From NCBI GenBank assembly GCA_038065395.1, contig JBBTRB010000004.1, positions 6,042 through 70,041 on the forward strand: a stretch of DNA of 64,000 bases, written 5' to 3'. A program made the position numbers and the translations under genes. This stretch comes from Patescibacteria group bacterium (GTDB taxonomy: Bacteria; Patescibacteriota; Minisyncoccia; Phycocordibacterales; PALSA-1337). Positions 11,465-39,114 of the stretch are shown one piece after another. Below the pieces are notes generated by a model, which was not told the origin of the DNA, made no database searches, and worked only from the letters and a program-made list of their open reading frames with translations. Each line of letters starts with the position of its first letter. Within the stretch, counting starts at the first letter, position 1.

Positions 11465-11472
11465 ATACTCTC

Positions 11473-12366
11473 ATGAATATTCACAAAATCACTACATCTA
11501 TACTCTTGCTCGTAAGTGTATTGGTGCCCATTCATACACTGAGCGCGCAGGCCAATGCCAACACGTCTCCTCGAATATACATAGAAGCACCTACGCGAGT
11601 TTCTGTGGGTTCAGAGTTCGTGGTGAAAGTATTGGTTGATAGTGAATCGCCGATCAATGCTATGGAGATAGCACTCACCTATCCGGGAACATTCCTCAAA
11701 CCAAGTGCATTCAACGAGAGCTCGTCGATCATTCAGCTCTGGCAGGACAAAGACTGGAGATCAACACCAGGTAAGATCATGTTGAGTGGCGGCATACCGC
11801 GTGCTTTTGCAGGTAACAAAGGAGAGGTCGGACGTCTGACATTCAAAGCTGTTGCGCCAGGAGACGTCACTGTGTCATTTACCGTTGCGGATACCTATTA
11901 TGCTGATGGGTTAGGAACTCGTACTACTGCCCGTACGTCCCCTGTACGCTTGAGTGTTTTTGCTGTTACTCCAGGTTCACCACAGGTAATAACTACCACT
12001 GTGGTACAAGATGAGGCATTGAATTCAGATACGCAACCCCCAGTATTCGGCCTCACTGACACTCTACGTAACCCTTCCAAAGGCAATCATCTGGCTATTT
12101 TCGAAGTGAAGGATACTGGTTCCGGTATTGCCAAGGTGGAAATACGTACCAACTCTCTGGTGTCCTGGAGTGATTGGCATGAAGTGACCAATCCAGCCGA
12201 AGTCCGATCTGGAACTTTCAAGTATCAGTTGCGTGCCACTGACAACACGGGGAATATCACCGTCGAAACATTCTATATCCGTTCAAAACTCATCTTGATA
12301 CTGAGCATTGTTATACTCAGTTTTGCCTTCCTTGCTGGTGCAATATACTTTATAATTAAACGGTGA
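11473..12366 (+). CDS. Cohesin-domain protein with a C-terminal TM anchor
   Basis: Signal peptide, then VGSEFVVKVLVDSESPINAMEIALTYPGTFL...GEVGRLTFKAVAPGDVTVSF (cohesin-like beta-sandwich signature). C-terminal hydrophobic helix LILILSIVILSFAFLAGAIYFII. Start trimmed from track 11452. Confidence 0.55.
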   Translation: MNIHKITTSILLLVSVLVPIHTLSAQANANTSPRIYIEAPTRVSVGSEFVVKVLVDSESPINAMEIALTYPGTFLKPSAFNESSSIIQLWQDKDWRSTPGKIMLSGGIPRAFAGNKGEVGRLTFKAVAPGDVTVSFTVADTYYADGLGTRTTARTSPVRLSVFAVTPGSPQVITTTVVQDEALNSDTQPPVFGLTDTLRNPSKGNHLAIFEVKDTGSGIAKVEIRTNSLVSWSDWHEVTNPAEVRSGTFKYQLRATDNTGNITVETFYIRSKLILILSIVILSFAFLAGAIYFIIKR

Positions 12367-16154: not shown

Positions 16155-16276
16155 AGAGCTAGTCCACAATCTCCATCTACTTCGTTACTTTCTACGCTCA
16201 AACTATCACCGTATACACGATACGGCTCAAGTTTTCGCTTGAAAGTGCCTCGCATATGGAGATTCTGGATACGCTC
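16155..16276 (+). repeat. Structured intergenic repeat, copy A (directly after the ndh stop codon)
   Basis: Shares ~85-90% identity with 23842-23964 and 31112-31234. Conserved hairpins CCGTAT-n5-ATACGG and TCAAG-TTTTCG-CTTGA. Confidence 0.6.
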
Positions 16277-16338
16277 TTGAAAGCGCTCTCGCATGGTATA
16301 CTCAAGTAAGAGATTATTGGTAGTAACTTCCAATCACT

Positions 16339-16695
16339 ATGAATATCATATTTCACTGGATCGTATCTGCTCTGGCTATTATCATTGCAGCGTATCTCTT
16401 GCCGGGTGTGGCGATATCAGGACTCATAGCGGCTCTGATCGTGGCCGTAGTTCTCGGTATTATCAATGTTTTTATAAAGCCGATCATCATACTTCTGACA
16501 CTTCCGATCAATATTCTCACCCTCGGGCTCTTCACACTCGTTATCAATGCGGCACTTATCATGCTTGCGAGTTCTATCGTCCCAGGATTTGTCGTAGATG
16601 GCTTCTGGTGGGCATTTGTCTTCGCGATCGTTCTCTGGATGATCAACTCAGTCTTTCATTCGATGGGCAGCACGTCTGATCCGGTTACCAATTAG
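16339..16695 (+). CDS. Small membrane protein, phage-holin-4 (YvlD/PF04020)-like family
   Basis: 118 aa with four hydrophobic segments; the LPGV..SG...ALI.A.VLGI.N..IKPII..LTLP pattern is typical of that family. Confidence 0.5.
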   Translation: MNIIFHWIVSALAIIIAAYLLPGVAISGLIAALIVAVVLGIINVFIKPIIILLTLPINILTLGLFTLVINAALIMLASSIVPGFVVDGFWWAFVFAIVLWMINSVFHSMGSTSDPVTN

Positions 16696-16716
16696 TCCCT
16701 AAAAACTACTCACTAT

Positions 16717-17112
16717 ATGACCATATCAATTCTTTTTATTGTTGGGCGCATCATCTTTGGCCTGTACTGGCTCCGTCAAGCATACAATCATCTCTTCCAC
16801 TCAGCAGGTATGATCGGTTACGCGCAGTCAAAAGGTGTTCCTCAACCAAAACTGGCCGTACTAGGAACGGGAGTGCTCATTGCTATCGGTGGTCTCTCTA
16901 TCCTTTCGGGTATGTGGATCACCATCGGACTCTCTGCTATCGCCATCTTCCTGGTCGGAGTGACTTTCACCATGCATGCATATTGGAAGGATACAGACCC
17001 TATGAGCAAGATGGGCAACGAGATCAACTTTTGGAAAAATCTGGCATTGCTCGGCGCGGTTCTGATGATGTTTGCGTTTTCTGGTTCGTGGGGGGTGGTA
17101 GGACAGAAGTAG
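16717..17112 (+). CDS. DoxX family membrane protein
   Basis: 131 aa, 4 TM; GRIIFGLYWL..AYNHL motif typical of DoxX. Confidence 0.55.
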   Translation: MTISILFIVGRIIFGLYWLRQAYNHLFHSAGMIGYAQSKGVPQPKLAVLGTGVLIAIGGLSILSGMWITIGLSAIAIFLVGVTFTMHAYWKDTDPMSKMGNEINFWKNLALLGAVLMMFAFSGSWGVVGQK

Positions 17113-17175
17113 AGAAGGTTATATAAAAGAATTCGCCCTAGCAGTAATGCTAGGGCGGGGAAATTTCGAGCAGAC

Positions 17176-17565
17176 TCACCCTATCTTTCTGAGTTCTCGC
17201 TCCAAATCCTTGGAGTGAACACACTGCAAAAAGTAGAATTGATGTTCAGACACACGCGGATCATGAGGACTTTCCTCGTGAGAGAGTTCTCCTGTGCCAA
17301 TAATCGGGCTTCGATTATTTCGCAAAGTTTCAGGATCTTTTCCCAGAGCCCGGAGATAGATCCCAACGCTCGTGGCCGCCTCCACATGGTAATCAGAACA
17401 CTTCAGGCAGCAAGTACAACCTTTTTTCTGCAGATCATGCAAAAGTTTGATAATTTGAGTTTTTAAGTCCACTTTGGGATATTTGGGTTTTTTGTTCGGA
17501 CTACCCAGGCTCCTTTCTAAAGCCAGTCCGTAATTCAATGTGCTTACCTGAATATTATACACCAT
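17176..17565 (-). CDS. Hypothetical protein with a Cys cluster (CTCCLKC)
   Basis: ORF only; no confident family assignment. Confidence 0.35.
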   Translation of the reverse strand: MVYNIQVSTLNYGLALERSLGSPNKKPKYPKVDLKTQIIKLLHDLQKKGCTCCLKCSDYHVEAATSVGIYLRALGKDPETLRNNRSPIIGTGELSHEESPHDPRVSEHQFYFLQCVHSKDLERELRKIG

Positions 17566-17645
17566 AAGTACCAGTTAAGTCAATACCCCGCAAAACACCC
17601 AAAATACGTCTTATTAGAAGAGTCTGTCATGCTATAATTTCCTCC

Positions 17646-19286
17646 ATGAATACTATTTCCGACCTGCAGAATCTCATACAAGGTTCAGTCGACACGACAC
17701 CAGAAACCCTTACCAAAGCCAGTCATGATGCAAGTATCTTCGAGATTCGCCCAGAGGCAGTCATCTCTCCGAAAAATGTCGAAGATATCAAGAAGCTTGT
17801 CATCTATGCGAGCGAGCATCCAGGAGTGACTCTTACTGCACGTTCGGGCGGTACATGTATGAGTGGAGGGTCTCTGACCAACTCTCTGGTGCTAGATATG
17901 ACTCGTCATTTCAACCAGATCAAGGAAGTGGGGGAGGGCTACGCGGTGACGCAACCCGGTGTGTACTACCGAGATTTCGACAAGGCCACTATGGACAAGG
18001 GTGGTCAGATCATGCCGAGCTTCCCGGCATCACGTGAACTCTGTACCGTAGGGGGAATGGTGGCGAACAATGCTGGTGGCGAGAAGACACTCACGTATGG
18101 CAAGACTGAACGTTATGTACGCAGACTCAAGGCAGTTTTTGCTGACGGTAACGAATACGAGATCAAACCTTTGTCTTTGGGTGAACTCGAGGAGAAGAAA
18201 AAGTTCAGCACATTCGAAGGGGAAGTGTATAGAAACATGCACGAACTCATTTCGACCAACTATGACGCTATCATGCAAGCCAAGCCGATCGTTACGAAAA
18301 ATTCCTGCGGCTATTCGCTATGGAATGTATGGAACAAAGAGAAGGATACATTTGATCTGACTCAACTCATCGTTGGTTCGCAGGGAACGTTAGGTCTCAT
18401 CACCGAGATCGAGTTTGGGTTGGTAAGACCAAAAGCATATTCACATCTCCTGGTAGTCTTTCTAACAGATCTCCAGCAACTGGGCGAAACAGCTGCACGT
18501 ATTTTGCAATTCAACCCAGAGAGTTTCGAATCCTATGACGATCAGACGCTCAAAGTTGCGTTCAAGTTTCTGCCACAGCTCATGAAACAGATGGGGGGAA
18601 ATCTCATCACGCTTGGTCTACAGTTTGTCCCGGAGATGATAGCGGTCCTCGAAGGGGGCATTCCGAAACTCGTACTTATGGCAGAGTTCACTGCAAATAC
18701 CGACGAAGAAGCACTCCGCATGGCAACCGAAGCTCAGGCCTCCATCAAGGATCTTCATGAGAAGTCTCGTGTCACCAAGACCGAACAAGATGAGAAGAAA
18801 TACTGGACGATCCGTCGTGAGAGTTTCAATATGCTGCGCAAACATGTTCACGGAGTACGCACGGCACCGTTCATCGACGACTTCGTGGTGCCTGCTCAGC
18901 GTCTACAAGAATTTTTGCCACGATTGTATACCATCCTCGGAGAATACAAGAAAGACCTGACCTATACTGTGGCGGGCCACGTGGGAGATGGTAACCTCCA
19001 CATCATTCCGCTTATGGATTTCCACAAAGACGAGGTTCGACATATCATCGAAGATTTGTCAGTCAAAGTCTATGCACTTGTCCATGAATTCAAAGGCTCG
19101 ATCACAGGGGAACACAATGACGGCATCATCCGTACTCCGTTCGTGAAGATGCAATATGGTGAAGAGGTCTATGGACTTCTCGAACAAACCAAGAAGATCT
19201 GGGATCCAAAGGGTATTTTCAACCCTGGCAAGAAGGTTGGTGGTACGCTCGAGTATGCCTTCAAGCATATCGTGAAGGAGTCATAA
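17646..19286 (+). CDS. FAD-binding oxidoreductase (FAD-linked oxidase, GlcD/D-lactate dehydrogenase-like)
   Basis: PCMH-type FAD-binding signature ...LTARSGGTCMSGGS...; 546 aa with the C-terminal FAD-oxidase domain. Confidence 0.75.
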   Translation: MNTISDLQNLIQGSVDTTPETLTKASHDASIFEIRPEAVISPKNVEDIKKLVIYASEHPGVTLTARSGGTCMSGGSLTNSLVLDMTRHFNQIKEVGEGYAVTQPGVYYRDFDKATMDKGGQIMPSFPASRELCTVGGMVANNAGGEKTLTYGKTERYVRRLKAVFADGNEYEIKPLSLGELEEKKKFSTFEGEVYRNMHELISTNYDAIMQAKPIVTKNSCGYSLWNVWNKEKDTFDLTQLIVGSQGTLGLITEIEFGLVRPKAYSHLLVVFLTDLQQLGETAARILQFNPESFESYDDQTLKVAFKFLPQLMKQMGGNLITLGLQFVPEMIAVLEGGIPKLVLMAEFTANTDEEALRMATEAQASIKDLHEKSRVTKTEQDEKKYWTIRRESFNMLRKHVHGVRTAPFIDDFVVPAQRLQEFLPRLYTILGEYKKDLTYTVAGHVGDGNLHIIPLMDFHKDEVRHIIEDLSVKVYALVHEFKGSITGEHNDGIIRTPFVKMQYGEEVYGLLEQTKKIWDPKGIFNPGKKVGGTLEYAFKHIVKES

Positions 19287-19326
19287 TGTTGATATCTCCT
19301 CAGAGTCGATAGGGTATAATTACCTC

Positions 19327-19785
19327 ATGACCCTCAACACTATCGACATTCACATCATCAACTTCTTCAGACGGTCATCTCTGGTTGTGGCACGTCTCGG
19401 ACTTTTTATCGTGTTCTTCTGGTTCGGTATCTTGAAAGTCTTCGACATGAGTCCTGCCAGTCCTCTGGTCCAGGCGTTGTTCGAAGCTACGATATCATTC
19501 ATGGATTTTCCTACATTCCTTTTTCTTTTTGGTATCTTCGAATGCATCATCGGTATCATGTTCCTGTTACCCAAAGTTGAACGTATCGTCATACCACTTC
19601 TTGCATTCCATCTCATCACGACGATGATGCCACTCTTCCTCCTTACAGAGGCAACATGGACAGCGCCTTTCGTGCCAACACTCGAAGGTCAGTACATCAT
19701 CAAGAACGTACTGATCGTTGCAACTGCTATATTCGTAGCCGCTCACGTACATCCGTGGTCACGTCGTAAGCTTTCACCATTATAA
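19327..19785 (+). CDS. DUF417 (YkgB/RclC)-like membrane protein
   Basis: ARLGLFIVFFWFGILKVF...SPASP matches the DUF417 N-terminal motif; 4 TM. Confidence 0.45.
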   Translation: MTLNTIDIHIINFFRRSSLVVARLGLFIVFFWFGILKVFDMSPASPLVQALFEATISFMDFPTFLFLFGIFECIIGIMFLLPKVERIVIPLLAFHLITTMMPLFLLTEATWTAPFVPTLEGQYIIKNVLIVATAIFVAAHVHPWSRRKLSPL

Positions 19786-19789
19786 ACAT

Positions 19790-20125
19790 ATGAACATATT
19801 TTCTATGATCACTTCTGAGCAGATCGAACTTGTCCTCATTTTCGGTGCGACGATCGTCGGGGTGGTCTCGGCCGCATACTTCTACTCATCAACAGATATT
19901 TTCATCCGTCTGATCGGACGACCATTCCGGTTCATCGCTTCGGGAGTGCTCCTGATCATGATCGGCGTCCTCATCGCTGCATTCATCTCGTACGCTGACC
20001 GTCTCGGAGTCCTGATACTTTTCTACGAGTTGCCGCTCCAAGTATTTTTCTATATTCTCTACATCAGCGGATCACTCCTCATCGTCCATGGTGCAAAAAC
20101 ATTTTCTCGGAATGTTTCGCAATAA
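19790..20125 (+). CDS. Hypothetical small membrane protein
   Basis: ORF, 3 TM helices. Confidence 0.4.
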   Translation: MNIFSMITSEQIELVLIFGATIVGVVSAAYFYSSTDIFIRLIGRPFRFIASGVLLIMIGVLIAAFISYADRLGVLILFYELPLQVFFYILYISGSLLIVHGAKTFSRNVSQ

Positions 20126-20255
20126 TTTTTTCCAAAAAGTTATACACACATTTTGTTTTTTCTGCTCGCATTCGTACGCACATGACCTATAATGAATACA
20201 GGTCGAAAATAATATCTGAATGTTAATTTAATTTTACTTCTCTCTATTTATTTTT

Positions 20256-20372
20256 ATGGCAAAAAGACAATCATCGCAAGGCAAGGCGTCTCGTTCTCGC
20301 AAGACCAAGAAGCGTCTCGCGGTCAAGCACACGAAGAAGTCTAAGGCAAAGAAGACCAAGAAGCGAAAATAG
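20256..20372 (+). CDS. 38-aa extremely basic peptide (MAKRQSSQGKASRSRKTKKRLAVKHTKKSKAKKTKKRK)
   Basis: Not in the track (under 60 aa). ATG 20256, TAG 20370-20372. Consensus TATAAT at ~20198 upstream and a perfect intrinsic terminator immediately downstream. Confidence 0.35.
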   Translation: MAKRQSSQGKASRSRKTKKRLAVKHTKKSKAKKTKKRK

Positions 20373-20401
20373 TTCGCACTTCTTCTCATCGAATTTCAAA
20401 A

Positions 20402-20424
20402 ATGCCCCATACTGGGGCATTTTT
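20402..20424 (+). terminator. Rho-independent terminator (ATGCCCC-ATACT-GGGGCAT followed by TTTT)
   Basis: 7-bp perfect GC-rich stem plus T-tract directly after the small basic ORF. Confidence 0.6.
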
Positions 20425-20440
20425 GTTGTATAATGAGTTT

Positions 20441-20752
20441 ATGAATAAAAAATATTGGCTGAGAGGATTGATGAGCGGGTTAGTCCTAGGTATTCTTGTG
20501 GTCATTGCGCACGAAAATGCATCTGAAATTTTTAGTTTATTTAATATTCATATTCCCTCGAATCCAGCTTCAGGAGATACACCACTTATCTATTTTAAAT
20601 ACACTTTCGTCGTCCAATATTTCTATAATATAGGACTATTTCCATGGTTCTTTTTGTCATACCTGTTGACGGAATTACAATACTTTCTTGTTCCCGTTAC
20701 CTATGGAATTGTAGGAGGTCTAGCAAGTTTCCTTTACGGTCAGACTCGATGA
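20441..20752 (+). CDS. Hypothetical membrane protein
   Basis: Track ORF 20402-20752 begins inside the terminator hairpin; start moved to MNKKYWLRGL. Confidence 0.35.
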   Translation: MNKKYWLRGLMSGLVLGILVVIAHENASEIFSLFNIHIPSNPASGDTPLIYFKYTFVVQYFYNIGLFPWFFLSYLLTELQYFLVPVTYGIVGGLASFLYGQTR

Positions 20753-20775
20753 TTAAAGTGAATTAAATATTCTCT

Positions 20776-21315
20776 ATGCCCACCACCCTACACACGGCCG
20801 TCTTTGGAGGAGGATGCTTCTGGTGCACAGAGGCGACTTTTCAGATGTTGAAAGGGGTACACAAAGTGACGTCGGGGTATGCGGGAGGTACGACTCAAAA
20901 TCCTACCTATGAGCAAGTCTCCAGTGGCACAACTGGCCATGCAGAAGTCATCAAGATAGACTTTGACCCGAGTGTCATATCTTTCTCGGATCTGCTGACA
21001 GTCTTTTTCAATACCCACGACCCGACAACCGTGAACCGTCAGGGTGCAGATGTGGGTACGCAGTATCGATCAGCGATATTTTATTCTAGTCCAGAGCAGA
21101 GAGAGGTTGCAGAGAAACTCATCACTGAGCTTAATAGTTCAAAAGCCTATGAGAACCCGGTAGTGACCGAAGTTGCGCCACTCGGAGAGTTCTACGAAGC
21201 AGAGGAATATCACAAGGATTACTACAAGAACAATTCTAGTCAGGCGTACTGTCAGCTGGTGATCGCTCCGAAACTTGAGAAGATGCAAAAGAGATTTGCG
21301 GAACTTTTGGCATAA
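20776..21315 (+). CDS. msrA: Peptide methionine sulfoxide reductase MsrA
   Basis: GGGCFWC active-site motif; 179 aa. Confidence 0.85.
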   Translation: MPTTLHTAVFGGGCFWCTEATFQMLKGVHKVTSGYAGGTTQNPTYEQVSSGTTGHAEVIKIDFDPSVISFSDLLTVFFNTHDPTTVNRQGADVGTQYRSAIFYSSPEQREVAEKLITELNSSKAYENPVVTEVAPLGEFYEAEEYHKDYYKNNSSQAYCQLVIAPKLEKMQKRFAELLA

Positions 21316-21421
21316 AACACAAAACCCGCCGAAGCGGATTTGCCAGCTTACCATCTGGGTATTTATAGTATACAATTTAATGGTTATATAGTTCAATAGT
21401 TAAATCTTTAAATAACTTTCC

Positions 21422-21820
21422 ATGACCGAAGATGATATAAAAAAGAAACTCACACCCGAAGAGTATGCCGTACTCAGGCAGAAGGGCACCGAAGCACCTT
21501 TTTCAGGGAGGTTGCTCCGTGAGAAGAGATCGGGAACTTATAATTGCAAAGTCTGCAACACCCCGCTCTTCTCTTCTGAGGCGAAGTTCGACTCGGGGAC
21601 GGGGTGGCCAAGCTTCGACCAGGCACTCCCAGGAGCAGTCAAAAGTATTACCGATACGTCACATGGTATGGCGCGCACAGAGATCGTCTGTGCAACGTGT
21701 GATTCTCATTTGGGACATGTATTCGACGATGGTCCGACACCTACAGGCAAAAGGTATTGTCTCAATTCGGTGTGTTTGGATCTGGATCCGCAAGGGAGTG
21801 AGAATAAAAGTTCCTCCTAG
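21422..21820 (+). CDS. msrB: Peptide methionine sulfoxide reductase MsrB
   Basis: Two CxxC zinc motifs ([21 protein letters not shown]) and RYCLNS catalytic region. Confidence 0.85.
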
Positions 21821-21904
21821 GTGAGCATTGACGGAGTGTTGCAAACGTCGTGAAAAGATGTATGATGGAGGAAGAGAAAGTGCAACTTCAAAGAAAGGAT
21901 TATT

Positions 21905-22357
21905 GTGCCCACGTTCGTTCAAAACACCCTTGCTAGTCAATTCCCACATCTTCCATTTGCGTTCGAAGCAGACCTGTTCGTTGGAGAAGTTTCAGGAAAG
22001 TCTGTATTTACCCAGATTGCATCTCGCAAAATCGGATTCGTTACCATCATTCAACCAAAGAAAGATCCAGAAAAGAGAGGTTCCGAAAAGGTTGAACCGA
22101 ACAGTCTCCAGGTTGAAAGTAACGGAAAGTTCGATGTTCACTTATTCGGAGATTTTTGCAACGATGGCGATCTGTTAAGGGCCTTCGGGTACCAGCTTGC
22201 TTGCACCTTCGAGTACGAACTGTCAGTGAATCCTCCACGAAAACTCACCTTCGAAGGTCAGGAAAATGAATTCCATCATTTTTGCGAAGCGTTTTGTGAA
22301 CGGTGGGTTCAGCAAGTTCCTATGGCAGAAGCAATTCGGGTGATACGGAACTTCTAA
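21905..22357 (+). CDS. Hypothetical protein
   Basis: ORF followed by a plus-strand hairpin and T-tract at ~22372-22406, which supports a real transcription unit. Confidence 0.4.
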   Translation: MPTFVQNTLASQFPHLPFAFEADLFVGEVSGKSVFTQIASRKIGFVTIIQPKKDPEKRGSEKVEPNSLQVESNGKFDVHLFGDFCNDGDLLRAFGYQLACTFEYELSVNPPRKLTFEGQENEFHHFCEAFCERWVQQVPMAEAIRVIRNF

Positions 22358-22421
22358 GAGAAATTCTCGACACACAAGCCGTCTCCTGACACGAGCGGCT
22401 TTTTTTATTTACCACACAGCC

Positions 22422-23819: not shown

Positions 23820-23841
23820 GGGGATTACTATAGCACAACTA

Positions 23842-23964
23842 AGAGCTAGTCCACTATCTTCATCTGCTTCGTTACTTTCTACGCTCAAACTCTCACCGTA
23901 TGCTCGATACGGCTCGAGTTTTCGCTTGAAAGTGCCTCGCATATGAAAGATAGTGGATACGCTC
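23842..23964 (+). repeat. Structured intergenic repeat, copy B (between divergent aspS and nrnA)
   Basis: Same element as 16155-16276; the loop of hairpin 1 differs (gctcg vs acacg) while the stem is conserved. Confidence 0.6.
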
Positions 23965-24008
23965 TCCTGCTTTTACGTTTCAATTATTGCGTGCTACGAT
24001 GAACATAT

Positions 24009-25028
24009 ATGATGACTGACATCTCACCTCTCGTCACCGAAAAAGCCCCGCTGATCCTGGCGGAGATACATAAGGCCAACAGTATCCTTTTGCATTGCCA
24101 TCCATCACCAGATCCGGACTCGGTAGGGTCGGCGTTGGCGATGAAGTTCGCGTTGGAACAACTGGGCAAGAAAGTCACCGTCATCCGTGGTGACTCCCAA
24201 ATTCCTGTGGCATTTTCGCACTTTCCGGGGGTAGGCGATATCGTGCAGAAAAACTTCTTTGAGATTGACCCCCAGGATTTTGACCTTTTTATTGTTCAGG
24301 ACTCCGGTTCTCCTGAGATGGTCTCTCGACTCCAACCTATCCCCGTGCCTGTTCCGATCAAGACGATTGTCATCGATCATCATGCCTCGAACACAGGCTA
24401 TGGCGATCTCAACCTGATCGAACCAAAGTATCCGGCTACCGCACAAATGCTATTCGATCTTTTGTTGCTATGGAATGTGAAGTTGGATGTGAATATTGCC
24501 TCGAATCTGTTTATTGGCGTCTACACTGATACCGGAGGGTTCAAGTATGCAGGTACCACTACCAGAACGTTTCGTATTGCCAGTGAACTCATCAAATACG
24601 TTCCTGATTTTGCCAATCTCATTTCACAGATGGAGAATTCCAACACCCCTGCCGATGTTGCATTCCAGGCACTCGCATTGTCATCCATCGAAACCTTCTT
24701 CGAAGGCAAACTGGCGCTTTCGGTCGTATCTCATGCATCTATCGTGGAGAAGGCTATACCTCTCGAAGATGCCCAGGCACACGCCATCTCACCAGCATTG
24801 CGTCGTGTGCGCCAATGGATGATCACTGGTGTACTCGTCGAACAAGTCCCTGGTACGATCAAACTGAGTTTCCGTAGCAAAGACGGCACCACGATCGATG
24901 TCTCACGACTGGCTGTTGCACTTGGTGGCGGTGGACATAAAGCTGCTGCAGGTTCGGTATTCAAGGGTTCGATCGAGGATGCAAAGGAACTAGTTGTCGC
25001 CAAAGCCAAGGAACTGTATAATCTCTAA
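24009..25028 (+). CDS. nrnA: DHH/DHHA1 phosphoesterase (NrnA-like oligoribonuclease/pAp phosphatase)
   Basis: HCHPSPDPDSVGSALAM, VIDHHA and GGGH motifs. Confidence 0.7.
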   Translation: MMTDISPLVTEKAPLILAEIHKANSILLHCHPSPDPDSVGSALAMKFALEQLGKKVTVIRGDSQIPVAFSHFPGVGDIVQKNFFEIDPQDFDLFIVQDSGSPEMVSRLQPIPVPVPIKTIVIDHHASNTGYGDLNLIEPKYPATAQMLFDLLLLWNVKLDVNIASNLFIGVYTDTGGFKYAGTTTRTFRIASELIKYVPDFANLISQMENSNTPADVAFQALALSSIETFFEGKLALSVVSHASIVEKAIPLEDAQAHAISPALRRVRQWMITGVLVEQVPGTIKLSFRSKDGTTIDVSRLAVALGGGGHKAAAGSVFKGSIEDAKELVVAKAKELYNL

Positions 25029-25032
25029 CCAT

Positions 25033-25707
25033 ATGAATTCAACACATATCATCGCACTTGGAGCACTTATTATCATTGCAGGTGCCTGGTTTACGTTCGA
25101 TCGCAAAGCTGCACCAGTATCCATTCAGACGACAGAGAGTTACTCGACCGAACAGCTAGCATCTTCGATAATTGCTACAACATCGAGTACTACGAGCACT
25201 ATTACTACTTCATCATCTACACCAACATCCATGAATACCATCACTATAGAAACAACCAAGGGTACGATTGTTTTTGAAACCTTCAACAGTGACGCTCCTA
25301 AGACTGTAGAGAATTTTATTACTTTGGCTAATGACGGCTTTTACAATGGCGTCATCTTCCACCGTGTGATCAGTGGCTTCATGATCCAGGGCGGTGATCC
25401 GACAGGCACCGGCATGGGAGGTCCGGGATACAAGTTCGCTGATGAGCTCAACTCAGCAACCGAATCCTACAAGCGTGGCTATGTCCGTGGCACCGTTGCG
25501 ATGGCCAACTCTGGTCCCAACACCAACGGCAGTCAGTTCTTCATCATGCACAAAGACACGCCATTGCCGAATGCCTACACCATCTTCGGTCGCGTGATCT
25601 CGGGTATGGAGGTCGTCGATGCGATCGCTGCATCGGAAGTCAACAGTAGTGATCGTCCGCTGGTGGATGTAGTTATGAAAAAGGTGACCGTAGGGGAGAA
25701 GAAGTAA
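25033..25707 (+). CDS. ppiB: Cyclophilin-type peptidyl-prolyl cis-trans isomerase with N-terminal TM/linker
   Basis: FHRVISGFMIQGGDPTGTGMGGPGYKFADE...NGSQFFI cyclophilin signature. Start at MNSTHII. Confidence 0.8.
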   Translation: MNSTHIIALGALIIIAGAWFTFDRKAAPVSIQTTESYSTEQLASSIIATTSSTTSTITTSSSTPTSMNTITIETTKGTIVFETFNSDAPKTVENFITLANDGFYNGVIFHRVISGFMIQGGDPTGTGMGGPGYKFADELNSATESYKRGYVRGTVAMANSGPNTNGSQFFIMHKDTPLPNAYTIFGRVISGMEVVDAIAASEVNSSDRPLVDVVMKKVTVGEKK

Positions 25708-25740
25708 GAAAGAAAAAAAGTGATTAGTAACTAGAAAAGT

Positions 25741-25777
25741 AAATCTGCCATTGACACATGGCGGATTTACTTTTTTG
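25741..25777 (+). terminator. Intrinsic terminator (AAATCTGCCAT-tgacac-ATGGCGGATTT followed by acTTTTTT)
   Basis: 11-bp stem plus T-tract after ppiB. Confidence 0.55.
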
Positions 25778-25833
25778 ATATTGAGGTGTAGGATAGTGAC
25801 TAGACAAAAACCCATAAAGAGAAGGATTGATCC

Positions 25834-26343
25834 ATGTCAGAAAACACAAACGAAGTAAAGGTTTCAAAGTTTTTTGTCGAACCTTTTGGTGAGACAAACG
25901 AGACCCTTTTCAGGGAAATCGTCGATGATACCTCGGGTAATGGGGAATTCCGACAGCTCAAAGATGTCGAGGGGAATGGTCATAATGTCGTCGAATTGAC
26001 TGTCGAGCAATTTTGCAAATTGTTGCGTCACAAACAACAACGATGCCACCAATTCCACGTATTCATTGAGACAGATGGCGGCCTTCTCCAGAGGATTCAG
26101 GTCATCATCGAGGATGAAGCCACACATCGAACCTTCGATGCGATCCTCCAGGACATCTCTGCGATCATGCCACAGGTGACGCTTCAGGATATGCCCGAAC
26201 TCCTTAGTCGGTCCAAGATCCAGCCAGTCCAAGGCAGATCACCTCACTGGTTCGGGAGTCCAGCCTGGAAGCAGAATAGACGTCCCAGGCACACTCCCGG
26301 GTACATTCGTCGAAGGTTTTCTCGCGGAAGTCATCGGCCATAA
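25834..26343 (+). CDS. Hypothetical protein (ambiguous: overlaps an equally plausible 122-aa ORF on the minus strand, 25864-26232)
   Basis: Two mutually exclusive ORFs; the plus ORF has an odd R/P/G-rich tail, the minus ORF is acidic. Cannot be resolved from sequence alone. Confidence 0.25.
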   Translation: MSENTNEVKVSKFFVEPFGETNETLFREIVDDTSGNGEFRQLKDVEGNGHNVVELTVEQFCKLLRHKQQRCHQFHVFIETDGGLLQRIQVIIEDEATHRTFDAILQDISAIMPQVTLQDMPELLSRSKIQPVQGRSPHWFGSPAWKQNRRPRHTPGYIRRRFSRGSHRP

Positions 26344-26443
26344 GCTTCACGCACATTCACATCGCCTCAAGGAACAGTCCTGGGGCGATTTTTCATACAA
26401 AAAAGCGCTCCGACGAGTATCGGGGCGCGTGAGACGGATCTTC

Positions 26444-27193
26444 TCAGGAGAGCACTTTCTGGTTTCGCTTCGAGCTCTTACCTTTTCTGATTCGCCTTCT
26501 ACTTTGGCTTTTTTTCTCATCTCGAATCTTCGCTCTTCTGTGAGCTTCTGCCTTCTTTTGATCCAAGACGATCAAACACCATTTGATCGTCTGTTCGGTG
26601 AAGAGACATTGACGTCCCTGTACCGTGGTATTTATGCCCCCGAGTACAGGTATCTGTCCAGATTTGACCACATGCGAAATATGGGCCTTGAACGTGTTAG
26701 CAATCGAACCTTCACCCCTTTGGTCCTTGTGGAAAGGGTGGTGTGACCCGACAGGGGTACCTCCGATCTGACGCGACCAATATTCGAATGTGTGCCGGTC
26801 ATTGTTTCTCTTGGACAAAGTCCCTCTGCGGAAGAGTTTTGTTCGATAGAGCTTTTCGTGGGCAGCTCTTCGTGCAGAAGAGTCGTCCCGAGGGATCATG
26901 GTGAGAGTGGCGATGATATCGGTTGCACTGAAGGCCCCATTCACCCGACCATCAGCGAGTGAGATGATCAGATATTCTATCTGTTTAATTCTGAACTGAG
27001 ACAGAGTTCTGAGTACGACTTCGCCACATTCTGCACACTCTCTCACGGTAAAGTAGGCACCGTGAGGATTGTTCGGTTGCGGTTCGAGAACATCATGAGG
27101 AAGTATCACAAAGATTCCTTTCTGTTTGTGTTGTTGGGTTTTGAAAGACCGAAGATTCATCGCTAGTCTATCACATCGGACTTTTTGTTTCAT
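26444..27193 (-). CDS. Hypothetical protein with CxxC motif and a very basic C-terminal tail
   Basis: ORF; start taken at MKQKVRCDR. Hairpin with flanking A/T runs at ~26395-26430 downstream. Confidence 0.4.
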   Translation of the reverse strand: MKQKVRCDRLAMNLRSFKTQQHKQKGIFVILPHDVLEPQPNNPHGAYFTVRECAECGEVVLRTLSQFRIKQIEYLIISLADGRVNGAFSATDIIATLTMIPRDDSSARRAAHEKLYRTKLFRRGTLSKRNNDRHTFEYWSRQIGGTPVGSHHPFHKDQRGEGSIANTFKAHISHVVKSGQIPVLGGINTTVQGRQCLFTEQTIKWCLIVLDQKKAEAHRRAKIRDEKKSQSRRRIRKGKSSKRNQKVLS

Positions 27194-27207
27194 GGTATTA
27201 TTCTCCC

Positions 27208-27972
27208 ATGTCCGAATACTACAAACCTCACCGAACACGCAATATATTCGACCCACAGAGCACTGACACCTTCCGTGTGAGTCGTTCCAAGATCGATTTG
27301 TTCATGAATTGTCCGCTCTGCTTCTATCTCGACGCACGACTCGGGGTAGGGAGACCGCCAGGGTTCCCTTTTGCGCTCAACTCTGCCGTGGACTCATTAC
27401 TCAAAAAAGAGTTTGACATTCATCGTGCCAAGAAGCGTCCTCATCCGTTGATGGGTGCATATGGCCTGACCGATGTCGTCCCTTATGCCCATGAAGACAT
27501 GGATCTGTGGCGTACCAACTTCAAGGGTATAACCCATGTCCACGAACCGACCAACTTTCTCGTAACTGGCGCGATCGATGATATTTGGATCAATAGTGCA
27601 GGTGAGTTGATCATCGTCGACTACAAGTCAACCAGCAAAGAAGAGAAGGTCACCCTCGACAAAGAATGGCAAATCGGCTACAAACGTCAGATGGAAGTGT
27701 ACCAGTGGCTTTTCCGGAGGAATGATTTCACGGTGTCTTCGACAGGGTATTTTGTCTACTGCAACGGCAAGACTGACCGAGAGGCCTTCGATGCCAAGCT
27801 GGATTTCGATATCGACCTCATACCCTATACGGGTGACGATGGGTGGGTAGAGCCGGCACTACGAGATATGCGTGCATGCCTGACGCTCGAGAAGCCGCCC
27901 AAGCCTGCTGCAGCATGTGACTACTGTGCCTACCGCAAAGCCGCTCGAGATGTGCAAACGAAGATCAAATGA
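27208..27972 (+). CDS. PD-(D/E)xK nuclease superfamily protein with a Cas4/RecB-like four-cysteine cluster
   Basis: Conserved ...GAIDDIW...IVDYKST (D...D-x-K) motif. N-terminal CPLC and C-terminal CDYCAY cysteines, as in Cas4/AddB-type Fe-S nucleases. No CRISPR nearby. Confidence 0.5.
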   Translation: MSEYYKPHRTRNIFDPQSTDTFRVSRSKIDLFMNCPLCFYLDARLGVGRPPGFPFALNSAVDSLLKKEFDIHRAKKRPHPLMGAYGLTDVVPYAHEDMDLWRTNFKGITHVHEPTNFLVTGAIDDIWINSAGELIIVDYKSTSKEEKVTLDKEWQIGYKRQMEVYQWLFRRNDFTVSSTGYFVYCNGKTDREAFDAKLDFDIDLIPYTGDDGWVEPALRDMRACLTLEKPPKPAAACDYCAYRKAARDVQTKIK

Positions 27973-28037
27973 CAATAGAAGAAGTGAGCTTGAATGTGAT
28001 ACTATAGAGCGACATTTAATCAATAAGCATACATAAT

Positions 28038-28523
28038 ATGAATACAACACGTTTTTCGTCAGCATGGAAAGCAGATCTCGGTATCCTGATCCTTCGCGTC
28101 GGTCTCGGCGTCACCTTCCTCGTACATGGCATAGCTAAGCTCAGTGGCATGGAAGGAACTATCGGATTCTTCGGATCACTGGGACTTCACTCGAGTCTTG
28201 CTTGGGCTGTAGCACTCATTGAGACTATTGGCGGAGCGATGCTCATCCTCGGTGTTTGGACGATGGTACCAGCTCTTCTTCTTGTGGCTGTTATGATCGG
28301 AGCTATTATTACAACCAAGATAGGTAAACCTTTTATGGGGGGTTATGAACTCGACTTCGTACTCCTGATGTCGCTCCTTGCAGCGGCAACTCTCGGGTCT
28401 GGCAAGTATGCCCTGACCAAAGGTTCTTCATGTGACTCGTGTGGCGCATGTGGTTGCAATTGCCACGAAGGCGACAAGCGTTGCGGGGTGGACGGAAAAT
28501 GTGAAGGTTGTACCTGTGCTTAG
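28038..28523 (+). CDS. DoxX family membrane protein fused to a Cys-rich (metallothionein-like) C-terminal tail
   Basis: LILRVGLGVTFLVHGIAKL DoxX motif; the last 33 aa contain 12 Cys (SCDSCGACGCNCHEGDKRCGVDGKCEGCTCA). Confidence 0.55.
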   Translation: MNTTRFSSAWKADLGILILRVGLGVTFLVHGIAKLSGMEGTIGFFGSLGLHSSLAWAVALIETIGGAMLILGVWTMVPALLLVAVMIGAIITTKIGKPFMGGYELDFVLLMSLLAAATLGSGKYALTKGSSCDSCGACGCNCHEGDKRCGVDGKCEGCTCA

Positions 28524-28562
28524 GAGAGCTAGTCCAGCATCTCCATCCGCTCCGTTATTTTC
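28524..28562 (+). repeat. Truncated copy C of the structured repeat (5' ~40 nt only), directly after the stop codon of the DoxX-Cys gene
   Basis: gagagctagtccagcatctccatccgctccgttattttct aligns with the 5' ends of copies A and B, then diverges. Confidence 0.35.
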
Positions 28563-29526
28563 TCGACAATGGAATAACTATCTCACACACCGTGCCGATC
28601 TTCGGCACGTTTGTGATAGAGAGGGTGCCGGCGAGCTCGTCTTCAACGATTGACTTCACGGTCATGAGACCAGTTCCTGTGCCACTTTTCTTGGTGGTGA
28701 AGGGACGTACCAAGATTGTATCGACATGGTGGTCAGGTATACCTGGCCCATTGTCGGTTATGGATATGCGGATACCATGAGCTTCCGTATTTGTAATATC
28801 AATGATCACTTGTTTGTCATCAGGGGAAGGTGTATCAGCATGAGCCTCGACTGCATTGGAAATAGTATTGAGGAATAGTTGCTGCAGACGTACCGAGTGG
28901 ATCGGTACAGTGAAATGATCATGATTCTGAACAGCGATCGTCACACCAGCGATGCGAGCTTTGTAGGCCAGAAGGTCGAGCACGATCGCAAGCTCACGAG
29001 TACTATCTGCATGTACTTCGCCAGGTACAGGTAGCGGATGTTGCATGACGGCACGGATACTTTCCATGAAAGATGCCATCCGACGTGATGCTTCGACTGC
29101 TGTCTGCACCGTCTGGGAAGTCTCGTTGGTTGTAGATGTGTCTGACTTTGTTGCGAGGCGTTCTACTGAGAGTGATACTGCTGATAGTGGTCCGATCAGG
29201 TCATGGAATAATCCTTTGGAGAGCTTACCAAACTCGGCGATACGCTCCAACTCTTGGCGATGTGCCTTTTGCGCATCGACGAGTTCTAGGGTGCGGTTCG
29301 AGATCTTGTATTCCAGGGAGAACCTGTCTGTCTCGAGTGAAGCATCGATTGTATGGATATGTTCTCGAGATCGACGATGTTCTCTGTAGACCAGATAGAG
29401 GATAGTTGCACCACAGAGGACGATGATACCGAGCGTCGAGAAGTCCAAGATACTATCTGCGAGTCCAGGCACGAATACAGCGGGATATACTCTATCCCGC
29501 TGTAGGAGTTGGACTCTGATACCCAT
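28555..29526 (-). CDS. Sensor histidine kinase (single TM, HisKA + HATPase_c)
   Basis: H-box FHDLIGPLSAV, N/G boxes (NAVEAH, DNGPGI, GTGTGL). Track start 29601 is probably too far upstream. Confidence 0.7.
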   Translation of the reverse strand: MGIRVQLLQRDRVYPAVFVPGLADSILDFSTLGIIVLCGATILYLVYREHRRSREHIHTIDASLETDRFSLEYKISNRTLELVDAQKAHRQELERIAEFGKLSKGLFHDLIGPLSAVSLSVERLATKSDTSTTNETSQTVQTAVEASRRMASFMESIRAVMQHPLPVPGEVHADSTRELAIVLDLLAYKARIAGVTIAVQNHDHFTVPIHSVRLQQLFLNTISNAVEAHADTPSPDDKQVIIDITNTEAHGIRISITDNGPGIPDHHVDTILVRPFTTKKSGTGTGLMTVKSIVEDELAGTLSITNVPKIGTVCEIVIPLSRK

Positions 29527-29757
29527 ATACAACCGTGTCGCTACGCACCTGCCAGGATGGTATGACTCTAGAGGAGTTGTATGTGCAGAGAATGGAGTCA
29601 TATGAGCTCACGTTCAAGGATACCTCTATCCCCGAACAGGAAGATCGTGAGCCTATGATACTGAAAATAATGATTATGTCGACTCATAATCCTTGATACG
29701 TTAGCCTGGCGAGATAAAATCCGTATGAATTTTGTCTCAAAAAAGGATAAAAATACA

Positions 29758-30447
29758 TTAAAATTTTGATAAATTTTCCGGTGTATCGATGACATAGCCT
29801 CGTCCAGGGAGGTTAATGATGAGATCTGCATGCCCATGTGCAGTGAGCTTTTTGCGGACATTGCGTATATGAGCCTCTACGGTGTTGGAATATGGGTCAC
29901 TCTCGGCAGTCCATACATGTTCCATGATGAGCGACCGTGACATGACGACGCCTGCATGGTGCATGAGGTAGGAGAGCAGGTTGAACTCTTTGCGAGTCAG
30001 GTGGAGTGGGGTACCACCGCGTTCGACGGTCTGGGTTTCGGTATTGAGGTTGACGTTGTCTACGGTGATGATCGGGGACTTGATCTGTGGTGATCTGCGA
30101 GCCATGGCGTCGAGTCGAGCCGAGAGCTCGATCATCGAGAATGGTTTGGTGACATAGTCGTCGGCTCCTTCCTCGAATGCACGGACTTTGGTGTCAGTAT
30201 CGCCGATCACCGAGAGGAAGAGTATCGGTGTAGACTTGCCAGAAGCACGGATCTCTCTACATACGGTCAGGCCATCTTTCTTGGGGAGTGCATGGTCGAG
30301 TATGATAGCGTCGTACGGATAGCTTCTTCCCATGAATGAGCCATCGGCACCGTTGGTCGCCACGTCGACGATATGAGATTTTGCCCCAAGACCCAACCGC
30401 ACATTCTCTGCGAGTGCCTGATCATCCTCTACGATGAGAACTTTCAT
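29758..30447 (-). CDS. OmpR-family response regulator (REC + winged-helix)
   Basis: MKVLIVEDD..., conserved Asp in LDHALPKKDG, C-terminal trans_reg_C. Confidence 0.8.
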   Translation of the reverse strand: MKVLIVEDDQALAENVRLGLGAKSHIVDVATNGADGSFMGRSYPYDAIILDHALPKKDGLTVCREIRASGKSTPILFLSVIGDTDTKVRAFEEGADDYVTKPFSMIELSARLDAMARRSPQIKSPIITVDNVNLNTETQTVERGGTPLHLTRKEFNLLSYLMHHAGVVMSRSLIMEHVWTAESDPYSNTVEAHIRNVRKKLTAHGHADLIINLPGRGYVIDTPENLSKF

Positions 30448-30540
30448 AATGTCGGCAGTATAGCAGAGTTAGCAAAAAGAAGTCTATAGAGTGCGCAGGC
30501 ACTGTGCTCTCGGGCACACTCGATCACTGCGTTCTCTCGG

Positions 30541-30612
30541 TGCCCTCGGCAGGAATCGAACCTGCATCTATTCCTTAGGACGGAACTGTTCTATCCATTG
30601 AACTACAAGGGC
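30541..30612 (-). tRNA. tRNA-Arg (anticodon CCT)
   Basis: Reverse complement folds as a cloverleaf: acceptor GCCCTTG/CGAGGGC, T-arm GCAGG-TTCGATT-CCTGC, anticodon loop GTCCTAA. Confidence 0.7.
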
Positions 30613-30694
30613 GGAAAAGTAAGCTCGTACCTTTCAACTCTACACCAAACAATAGACTCTCGCCATCTGAGCCATGATTTGCTATAGTAGCGCC

Positions 30695-30961
30695 ATGACG
30701 CCCGAAGAACGTTCTTTGCTCGAACGAACCCATAAACTCGCCGAAGAGAACAACGCTCTTCTACGCAGTATGCGACGCATGTCACGCATATCGGGTGCCT
30801 TACGCATTCTCTACTGGGTCGTCATATTGGGAGTCGGTTTCGGTACATTCTATGTCATTCAGCCGTACGTAGAGTCCTTGCTCACTGTCTTTGGAGATAT
30901 CCAGGCAGCTAGCGGACAGTCTCCCGGAACAGCCAGCTTATTCCTGGATTTGCTCAAGTAG
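30695..30961 (+). CDS. Hypothetical small membrane protein between two tRNAs
   Basis: ORF with a coiled-coil N-terminus and one TM. Confidence 0.35.
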   Translation: MTPEERSLLERTHKLAEENNALLRSMRRMSRISGALRILYWVVILGVGFGTFYVIQPYVESLLTVFGDIQAASGQSPGTASLFLDLLK

Positions 30962-30970
30962 CGTTTGGTC

Positions 30971-31000
30971 ACCAATTCGCCAAGGTAGCTGTCTTGGTAG
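30971..31000 (+). repeat. Partial duplicate of the tRNA-Phe 5' region (accaattcgccaaggtagctgtcttggtag)
   Basis: 26/30 identical to 31029-31058, which spans the start of tRNA-Phe. Confidence 0.4.
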
Positions 31001-31035
31001 GTAACATGATAGATTGAAAATAGCATAACCAATTT

Positions 31036-31111
31036 GCCAAGGTAGCTCAGTTGGTAGAGCATTCCCCTGAAGAGGGAAGGGTCACCAGTTCGATCCTGGT
31101 CCTTGGCACCA
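31036..31111 (+). tRNA. tRNA-Phe (anticodon GAA) with encoded CCA
   Basis: GCCAAGGTAGCTCAGTTGGTAGAGCATTCCCCTGAAGAGGGAAGGGTCACCAGTTCGATCCTGGTCCTTGGCACCA; canonical cloverleaf. Confidence 0.9.
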
Positions 31112-31234
31112 CAGAGCACCTCTATAATCTTCACCTGCTTCGTTATTTTCTACGCTCAAACTCTCACCATATACTTGATATGGCTCGAGTTTTCGCTTGA
31201 AAATGCCTCGTATATGAAAATCGTGGATACGCTC
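31112..31234 (+). repeat. Structured intergenic repeat, copy D (directly after tRNA-Phe)
   Basis: Same element; hairpin 1 carries a compensatory double change (CCATAT...ATATGG vs CCGTAT...ATACGG). Confidence 0.6.
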
Positions 31235-31355
31235 ATATTCTCGGAACGATCCCAAAAACCTAGATTCTACAAGGGTCTGGGTGGGCTTGACATTTCATAT
31301 TAAATGATATAATATACGACTCACGCATATTAACGCGCAATTTCCCCAAAATCCT

Positions 31356-39100: not shown

Positions 39101-39114
39101 TGTGTGGGGAGATA

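Follow-up and report, generated by a model that had tools for sequence, protein, structure and literature searches.

Bacterial MITEs are defined as non-coding elements of less than 200 bp with terminal inverted repeats (TIRs), 5'-TA-3' termini, a target-site duplication and transcripts that form long stem-loops, often with one open frame (Delihas 2008, PMC2229807). Two described kinds, Correia and ERIC, have effects at the RNA level (PMC10969869), and in Yersinia the orientation of ERIC matters for mRNA stability (PMC2229807; PMC10969869). A full-text literature search retrieved no paper describing MITEs in Patescibacteria (CPR). Genomes of these bacteria are tiny and streamlined, and a MITE family among them would show that selfish DNA persists in such genomes and is tolerated there.

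Here we analyse repeats in a stretch of 64,000 nt (the window) from an uncultured groundwater Patescibacteria MAG, near Ca. Taylorbacteria. These repeats are probably copies of a non-autonomous MITE of ~124 bp. The element is shorter than 200 bp and non-coding, possesses TIRs, a long stem-loop and TA termini, and occurs as dispersed copies with presence/absence differences. It is best read as a new family within a familiar type of element, to which Correia, ERIC and RUP belong.

Copies, neighbours and empty sites

Repeat search located three full copies and one 40-nt fragment in the window, all on the + strand, at coordinates that a previous sequence-only reading had given correctly to within 1 nt. 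Copy A (16155..16277, +; 147 bits) is a full element, a long imperfect palindrome that adjoins the TAG stop of ndh (16152..16154, +) and is followed after 62 nt by the next + strand gene (start 16339). Copy B (23842..23965, +; 151.5 bits), also full, occupies the spacer between divergent aspS (start 23819, - strand) and nrnA (start 24009, + strand). Copy C (28524..28563, +) adjoins the TAG stop of the DoxX-Cys gene (28521..28523, +), upstream of a terminator hairpin common to this gene and a convergent histidine-kinase gene. It had been described as 5'-truncated; since it consists of the first ~40 nt of the element and its 5' end is kept, it is in fact 3'-truncated. Full copy D (31113..31235, +; 133 bits) lies directly 3' of the encoded CCA end of tRNA-Phe(GAA) (31036..31111, +; tRNA match). 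Direct placement after a gene or tRNA, previously ascribed to the family, can be seen in the sequence for A, C and D and does not apply to B. Housekeeping genes are the neighbours, with a spacing of about 2.5-7.7 kb.

The repeat search itself delimits the full copies as 16155-16276, 23842-23963 and 31113-31234 and places 28524-28563 in a 40-nt family. Copies B and D are 82-83% identical to copy A in its ungapped matches, and the 5' terminal 22-mer of the element occurs three times (0.02 expected). A search of related metagenomes, suggested by the sequence-only reading, yielded five further copies from Hainich H41 and JGI groundwater metagenomes, each at a different locus, so that the element is known from nine loci in total. 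Pairwise identity among copies is 72-94%, and at such values there is no sign of recent activity. Copy B is 91% identical to A, 86% to D and 94% to L009, which is found at another locus on another contig; that its closest match lies elsewhere fits several rounds of spread. In six of the seven cases in which a copy abuts a gene, the 5' end of the element meets this gene in sense direction.

Corresponding sites in relatives are empty. The distance from the ndh stop to the next gene is 25-29 nt in L012 and L013, both without the element, and the aspS-nrnA spacer lacks it in L010, L012 and L013. In L010, stop codon and terminator of the DoxX gene are the same as in the window, without the copy C fragment. 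The C-terminus of ndh (YPRDITKLS/T*) and its stop position are kept in all three relatives, and the DoxX-Cys orthologue of L010 ends at the same position as in the window. Since C-termini and stop positions are conserved in both genes, the element lies exactly after native stops. Relatives with empty sites share ~74% ndh identity, and their flanks are too diverged for base-by-base alignment of the TA duplication. In 1.2 Mb around aspS from 80 related species no copy was found, one distant relative excepted. The presence or absence of the element might serve to track strains in groundwater populations.

TA flanks the element ends in 13 of 16 cases, seven of eight on the left and six of eight on the right (p about 5e-8 for a 5-nt search window with a 0.176 chance of TA; p 6e-4 for right ends alone). 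The TA sits 2-5 purines from a conserved GC, with register slop of 1-2 nt. It is absent on the right of copies A and B and on the left of copy D; sequences 3' of the element read GAAAGCG (A), CCTGCTT (B) and ATATTCT (D). In six cases the flanking TA is that of a neighbouring gene's stop codon, and several copies begin or end exactly at such a native stop. In copies A and C, the TA on the left is part of a native stop codon.

Palindromic fold and the minus-strand frame

The element forms one end-to-end imperfect palindrome of ~124 nt, with 43 pairs and 93.2% of the consensus paired. Eleven consensus pairs display compensatory double changes. None of 500 shuffles reached this. Two separate conserved hairpins had been proposed earlier. 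The first of them is only the apex of the long palindrome, and the double substitution noted there is confirmed (columns 61/73: G-C in four copies, A-U in four). The second shows no covariation, with four of its five pairs invariant, and competes with helix 3 of the long hairpin.

Minimum free energy folds of the copies have z-scores from -3.8 to -9.3 on either strand. Copy A folds with -42.4 kcal/mol on the + strand and -54.9 on the - strand (z -6.2/-7.9), copy D with -30.6 (+) and -39.7 (-) kcal/mol, its outer stem being weakened by divergence of its 5' terminal ~15 nt. The consensus fold likewise reaches -49.5 kcal/mol on the minus strand vs -42.8 on the plus strand, and single-sided changes specific to individual copies leave the minus strand with more G-U pairs than the plus strand. 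The argument that G-U pairs point to a plus-strand RNA therefore fails.

The most conserved parts are an asymmetric internal loop (CTGCTTCGTT / GCCTCGCAT) and the centre, where conservation is partly forced by the pattern used to search for further copies; the termini vary, with compensation. Compensatory changes would maintain the palindrome, either by selection on the hairpin (as RNA or single-stranded DNA) or by arm-to-arm correction at the DNA level. In palindromes such changes can come from DNA-level quasi-palindrome template switching, without selection on RNA.

On the minus strand a frame is open in all eight copies, two of which are called as proteins (44 and 64 aa) in public data. Both facts would suit a small protein gene (MRGTFKRKLEPYRxYGESLSVExNE...), to which we nevertheless give almost no credence. 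Variable columns are distributed 12/13/14 over codon positions 1/2/3, with no third-position excess; pairwise comparison counts 345 non-synonymous vs 75 synonymous codon changes, and amino-acid changes track changes of stem pairs. Copy D has ATA where the ATG is expected, and a 1-nt frame-shifting indel lies just upstream. Among 5.8 billion database proteins only two were found to match the peptide. Moreover, ERIC, RPE and Correia-type MITEs are known to carry open frames (PMC2229807). The sequence-only reading had already judged coding unlikely, and codon positions and the ATA of copy D agree with it. It was also right about artefacts on this strand: copy A gives rise to a 60-aa ORF (16151-16333), and copy B adds a false N-terminal extension to the public aspS call (506 aa vs 465 aa in relatives). 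The element accounts in this way for recurrent annotation errors, namely a spurious 44-64-aa "protein" and an aspS start misplaced by 41 codons.

Proposed insertion at stop codons and competing explanations

As a MITE, the element would be inserted at TA dinucleotides by a transposase acting in trans, with duplication of the TA. The TA flanks make an IS630/Tc1-mariner-type DDE enzyme the best guess; RUP and IS630-Spn1 serve as the model for this mechanism. The stop TA of ndh (16152-16154) would have been the target of copy A. Promoters and terminators occupy the 25-70 nt spacers of this compact genome, so that a stop codon (TAA/TAG) would offer, with its TA, one of few harmless targets. Both ends of the element begin with a purine, so that a TAG or TAA would be restored at the junction, leaving the upstream protein as it was. 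This would be a neat example of how a TA-targeting element survives in a genome nearly devoid of spare intergenic DNA: it lands on stop codons and rebuilds them. Copies with a stop codon before them and a terminator or the next gene behind them are probably co-transcribed as a long 3'-UTR hairpin, which could influence mRNA decay or processing, as Correia and ERIC do.

Several observations count against a MITE. Conserved TIRs are expected of a classical DDE MITE, whereas the termini here vary, and the prevalence of 5' ends next to genes is not predicted by simple TA insertion. ORF domains of the window and 7 kb beyond (71 kb) include no transposase gene of any family, nor was an autonomous element with matching ends found in this region.

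These repeats had previously been presented as candidates in two ways, as novel ncRNA or as miniature element. The latter alternative is favoured by dispersed copies, empty sites, a palindrome with terminal inverted repeats, TA ends and one truncated copy. The former suffers from lack of an own promoter or terminator, absence from relatives and absence from Rfam, in which, as had been surmised, no known family matches: only four tRNAs were detected in the window, and 16100-16340 gave 0 matches at E<=10. Its strictest form, an independent trans-acting sRNA family with a + strand transcript of ~120 nt, could appeal to the strong covarying fold and to the single orientation of the four window copies. 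We hold it to be very improbable: no promoter-like site is present upstream of the copies and no terminator downstream, copies start right at a stop codon or tRNA end and so leave no room for a promoter, syntenic relatives are devoid of the element, and the strand argument fails as does comparison with Rfam. An intrinsic (Rho-independent) terminator consists of a GC-rich hairpin and an immediately following T-run, and none of copies A, B and D ends in a terminator-like site on its 3' side.

More weight is due to a selected cis-acting RNA hairpin, a 3'-UTR module whose long stem, after transcription together with the upstream gene or tRNA, would act as RNase III site, 3' exonuclease barrier or protein-binding platform. 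Mobility would then be only the route of arrival, and this explanation overlaps partly with that of a MITE; taken by itself it is unlikely, if by no means negligible. Covarying stems enclose the conserved asymmetric loop, and the preference for sense orientation behind genes is in its favour. Transcription is to be expected of the copies in L002 and L003 and of copy C, each of which has a stop codon on one side and a terminator hairpin on the other. Loop and architecture also persist in a distant Ca. Nomurabacteria relative, where a ~130-nt hairpin has the same asymmetric loop (5'-CUGCUUCGUU / 5'-GCCUCGCAU), apex and TA ends in otherwise different stems. However, the same sites exist in relatives without the element, copy B resides in a divergent promoter region and not in a 3' UTR, and the better fold and additional G-U pairs of the minus strand are opposite to what selection on a sense RNA would produce. 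In addition, the element is followed by no T-run and matches no Rfam family, and compensation in a palindrome can arise at the DNA level. Prompted by the Ca. Nomurabacteria hairpin, a broader and likewise unlikely proposal sees in the element not just a selfish MITE but part of a Paceibacteria-wide superfamily, with conserved structure, one conserved loop and drifting stem sequence. It might be a functional protein-binding module of RNA or single-stranded DNA at gene ends, for example a signal for 3'-UTR processing or stability that only these streamlined bacteria have, or else a mobile element whose folded shape is recognised by a class of enzymes not so far associated with elements of this sort. 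Only if the conserved internal loop proves functional would a new category of biology be at hand.

Recognition of the folded hairpin and its asymmetric loop, instead of terminal sequences, is also what a REPIN-like hairpin would imply, moved as single-stranded DNA by a Y1/HUH transposase of RAYT or IS200/IS605 type. Conservation of structure and loop rather than termini agrees with this, as does the extragenic position of copies adjoining gene ends. Both arms change together, as they reportedly do in REPINs according to Bertels and Rainey in 2011. On the other hand, TA at both ends is typical of TA-duplicating DDE elements, and HUH elements make no target duplication. The arms are ~60 nt long and do not resolve into two recognisable REP units of ~25 nt, and the 71 kb searched yielded no Y1_Tnp/RAYT gene. 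We therefore consider a REPIN-like origin doubtful. An integron attC site was rejected. Such sites have R''/R' core sites (RYYYAAC ... GTTRRRY) at their ends and occur in cassette arrays, both of which would be required; ends of the element read AGAGCTAGTCC ... GGATACGCTCT and its neighbours are housekeeping genes. Searches of plasmids and phages with the element returned nothing.

Comparison with described elements

Among palindromic elements, REPs and REPINs with their RAYTs resemble the element in being extragenic hairpins by gene ends, with co-varying arms that keep the hairpin. REP units measure 20-40 nt and have a conserved 5' tetranucleotide, and the RAYT gene is flanked by REPs. The window element differs in its ~60-nt arms and TA ends, and no RAYT was found in 71 kb. 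A comparison of copy B with 5,426 complete E. coli genomes (blastn, word 11) gave no match, and thus no sequence similarity to ERIC, REP or other E. coli repeat families.

In architecture, ERIC (127 bp) is nevertheless close: it is of near-equal size, is imperfectly palindromic from end to end, has TA termini and an open reading frame (PMC2229807), and is found in transcribed regions at 3' ends of genes (PMC2229807; PMC10969869). The host lineage of the window element is a different one. Correia (NEMIS) repeats of Neisseria share a length of about 100-155 bp, a non-coding nature, inverted repeats, a long-hairpin transcript and TA termini; they also have many intergenic copies beside genes, are co-transcribed and have an open frame in some size classes (PMC2229807; PMC10969869). 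Set against this description, they are distinguished by well conserved TIRs of their own (24-26 bp), an IHF site and outward promoters, whereas the termini of the window element vary and its conserved part is the asymmetric internal loop and centre; the phylum differs too.

RUP of Streptococcus pneumoniae is 107 bp long and has TA as its insertion site; an IS630-family transposase is believed to mobilise it in trans (PMC2229807). Its TIRs match a known IS, whereas no parent IS or transposase was found here in 71 kb, and RUP has stops in all six frames. Finally, RPEs of Rickettsia are palindromic, 105-146 bp in length and present in a reduced genome, and their open frame can fuse to host genes (PMC2229807). 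Copy B, fused to aspS in the public gene call, may be compared with such fusions. RPEs typically lie in frame inside genes, whereas all window copies are located outside true coding regions.

Copies in the window and the frame on their minus strand

The repeat family proposed in the sequence-only reading was located in the window, with corrections, as three full copies and one fragment, all four on the + strand. Copy A (16155-16277) lies directly 3' of the TAG stop of ndh (14814-16154), and copy D (31113-31235) directly 3' of the CCA of tRNA-Phe (31036-31111). The fragment, copy C (28524-28563), directly follows the TAG of the DoxX-Cys gene (28038-28523). Gene coordinates bear out these three placements. 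The description "directly after genes or a tRNA" fails for copy B (23842-23965), which occupies the spacer separating the divergently oriented genes aspS (- strand, ATG at 23819) and nrnA (+ strand, start at 24009). Copy C comprises the first 40 nt of the element; because the 5' end is retained, it is truncated at the 3' end and not, as had been stated, at the 5' end. For the 5' terminal 22-mer, three occurrences in the window compare with 0.02 expected.

All four copies are found within 15 kb (16155-31235); the remaining 49 kb of the window and 7 kb past its right end contain none. This clustering may reflect chance (p about 0.05), hopping over short distances or an unequal distribution of intergenic space. 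Near copy D, the first 22 nt of tRNA-Phe together with the preceding 8 nt (31028-31057) recur at 87% identity 57 nt further upstream (30971-31000). This partial tandem duplicate may have been left behind by an integration or rearrangement event involving the tRNA.

On the minus strand, the frame MRGxFKRKLExYRxYGESLSVExNE... is open in all copies. Variable columns are spread evenly over codon positions 1, 2 and 3 (12, 13 and 14), pairwise differences are 345 non-synonymous versus 75 synonymous, and amino-acid changes follow changes in stem pairs. In copy D, ATA replaces ATG and a 1-nt indel just upstream shifts the frame. Coding was rejected on these grounds, in agreement with the earlier view of this peptide. 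ERIC, RPE and short Correia elements are likewise known to contain open frames (PMC2229807). The element nevertheless causes annotation errors. The public aspS call (22422-23942, - strand) encodes 506 aa, against 465 aa in relatives; its 41 false N-terminal codons read through copy B, and the true start at ATG 23819 restores 465 aa, which confirms the suspected false extension.

Other features of the window were recorded as well. A 1002-aa sigma-70 protein (42494-45502, - strand) contains regions 2, 3 and 4 and an internal Bac_DnaA_C HTH (E 3e-16); the combination of sigma-70 with the DnaA C-terminal HTH is an unusual sigma-factor architecture. An adjacent 238-aa protein (41633-42349, - strand) has a weak DnaA_C-like HTH at its start. 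A 36-nt repeat (GATCGATCCGATGGTGTTCGTGGGGTTTTGGGAGGA) occurs at 36982-37017, inside the 3' end of an M23 peptidase gene, and at 39111-39146; the two copies are 97% identical and their flanks unrelated. Positions 1-8753 (+ strand) encode part of a giant 3615-aa protein with many diverged internal repeats (42-300-nt families at 100-6200) and Pfam matches to SdiA-regulated and phytase-like domains.

Occurrence outside the window and empty sites in relatives

The window belongs to contig Hain_H41_01um_R2_15 (249.6 kb) from the 0.1 um fraction of Hainich groundwater. Annotation of an NCBI "Patescibacteria group bacterium" MAG includes an identical ndh, and the nearest species-level genomes by aspS (80-83% identity) are Ca. 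Taylorbacteria. No exact match to the element core was found in 185,579 species genomes, nor a match to a relaxed pattern in IMG/VR viral contigs. A pattern scan of metagenomes retrieved three true copies (L002, L003 and L005); L004, L006 and L007 were discarded on inspection as chance matches. When a profile of the minus-strand peptide was run against 5.8 billion proteins, only two matches were obtained, to annotated "proteins" 44 and 64 aa long, and these led to two more copies (L008 and L009). All five added copies come from Hainich well H41 or JGI metagenome Ga0213919.

A covariance model of the element (R1), a check proposed in the sequence-only reading, detected no further or degenerate copy in the window or 7 kb past its right end, and no copy in the syntenic relatives L010, L012 and L013. 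In 1.2 Mb around aspS of 80 related species, its sole match was a distant relative, L047. A regex search of 1.4 Mb for both loop motifs, with up to two mismatches each, retrieved nothing new.

Three syntenic loci (L010, L012 and L013/L014; ndh identity about 74%) were compared at the insertion sites. The ndh stop is separated from the next gene by only 25-29 nt in L012 and L013, no copy occurs between aspS and nrnA in L010, L012 or L013, and in L010 a shared terminator directly follows the DoxX stop. Since the C-termini of ndh (YPRDITKLS/T*) and DoxX and their stop positions are conserved, the element sits exactly after native stops and the genes are not truncated. Given these empty sites, and with L047 as the only further R1 match in the DNA searched, the element is a dispersed, lineage-restricted insertion. 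Searches by tblastn of the GTDB loci for additional ndh and DoxX orthologues yielded no closer empty sites.

Directly after the ndh stop codon of L010 (about 11339-11480; JGI 3300051786) we observed an unrelated, very stable palindromic element of about 135 nt (-66.6 kcal/mol, z -8.6), with an 18-bp outer stem and two inner hairpins, single-copy within 21 kb of L010 sequence. Different hairpin elements may thus colonise one post-stop-codon niche in this clade.

A single long hairpin

Folding reveals that every copy forms a single long imperfect hairpin, end to end, on either strand. Fold energies of copies A, B and D are -42.4, -52.4 and -30.6 kcal/mol for the plus strand and -54.9, -59.4 and -39.7 kcal/mol for the minus strand, with z-scores from -3.8 to -9.3. 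The consensus hairpin derived from eight aligned copies comprises 43 pairs, and 93.2% of the cells are paired. Double-sided changes occur in 11 pairs, a number approached by none of 500 shuffles and by no slid control, among sequences that are related and three of which were found through a pattern. These changes fall in helices 1, 2 and 4. Helix 3 is invariant, partly because the metagenome search pattern forced it. Conservation is highest in the centre and in an asymmetric internal loop (CTGCTTCGTT / GCCTCGCAT) situated about 25 nt from each end; the termini are variable, with compensation.

The two conserved hairpins previously described are not the main architecture: hairpin 1 is merely the apex of the long hairpin. 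Hairpin 2 (TCRAG-N6-CTTGA), a competing local fold that excludes helix 3, displays no covariation, four of its five pairs being invariant; L047 lacks it and retains the long hairpin. A G-U pair had also been taken as a sign of plus-strand RNA. That argument is removed by the copy-specific single-sided changes, which, although few and non-independent, create about 11 G-U cells on the minus strand versus 4 on the plus strand. In the long hairpin, the A-to-G change in question also re-creates a C-G pair (columns 55/79), and the consensus folds better on the minus strand (-49.5 versus -42.8 kcal/mol). DNA-level correction of one arm by the other can also yield compensatory changes in palindromes, and therefore covariation alone is no proof of RNA function.

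Termini, probable mode of insertion and resemblance to known elements

Left ends consist of TA, 2-5 purines and GC, right ends of GC, 2-3 pyrimidines and TA. TA is present at seven of eight left and six of eight right ends (p about 5e-8, with a chance of 0.176 for TA within a 5-nt window; p 6e-4 for right ends alone). One TA is missing in each of copies A, B and D, and the register slips by 1-2 nt. In A, C, L002, L005 and L008 the stop codon of the upstream gene supplies the left TA, and in L009 the right TA belongs to the stop of a convergent gene. Both ends of the element begin with a purine, so that a TA followed by the element again reads TAG or TAA, whichever way round the element lies. 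TAA directly follows the element in L002, L003 and L005, as would be expected if an original TAA stop had been targeted and its TA duplicated. The duplication is putative, given the register slip, the TA missing from A, B and D, and empty sites too diverged to display it.

The most likely mechanism, which we consider fairly probable, is that a non-autonomous palindromic element inserts at TA, that its insertion is tolerated at stop codons, and that copies are carried in 3' UTRs passively or with modest cis effects. Of the two options offered earlier, the miniature element stands and the novel ncRNA gene does not. Readings as attC site, terminator or sRNA gene were rejected on feature tests, and scans for promoters and terminators near copies A, B and D detected no signal above shuffle expectation that is part of the element.

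Several observations do not fit neatly with a miniature inverted-repeat transposable element (MITE). The termini are variable, the 5' end is next to the gene in six of seven gene-abutting cases, and a search of 71 kb (window plus 7 kb past the right end) uncovered no transposase, nor did Pfam and NCBIfam scans of 25 window ORFs. The relative L047 (2238-2371, + strand; Ca. Nomurabacteria UBA11704, DOZK01000002.1) is a further one. This hairpin of about 130 nt aligns end to end with R1 (27 bits, E about 6e-4 over 1.2 Mb). CTGCTTCGTT and GCCTCGCAT (chance about 1e-3 by our own estimate) and the apex CGTA..TACG are common to L047 and the element. L047 also has TA at both ends (TA|AACG...CGTT|TA) and resembles the element in length and long hairpin, its stems being otherwise different. 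An ORF (1843..2250) terminates within the 5' end of L047. Alignment of L047 with the family by MAFFT was not achieved. From this relative one may suspect an older superfamily whose members retain a common shape and one loop. This keeps two other, less likely readings in play: a selected RNA or single-stranded-DNA hairpin, and mobilisation by a shape-recognising (HUH-type) enzyme.

Bacterial MITEs such as Correia/NEMIS, ERIC and RUP are small and non-coding, with a full-length inverted repeat, TA termini, a long stem-loop transcript, one open frame and intergenic positions beside genes (PMC2229807). Mobilisation of RUP, at TA sites, is attributed to an IS630-family transposase (PMC2229807). Co-transcription, effects of RNase III and RNase E, and orientation dependence are documented among these families (PMC10969869). 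The element shows no sequence match to ERIC or other E. coli repeats (blastn against E. coli genomes), and blastn against plasmids and phages retrieved none either; comparison with Rfam was likewise without match, in line with the initial failure to recognise a known RNA family. Its set of features agrees with the published description of Correia/NEMIS, ERIC and RUP (PMC2229807), and together with the lack of matches in Rfam, plasmids, phages and E. coli this points to a new family of a known kind.
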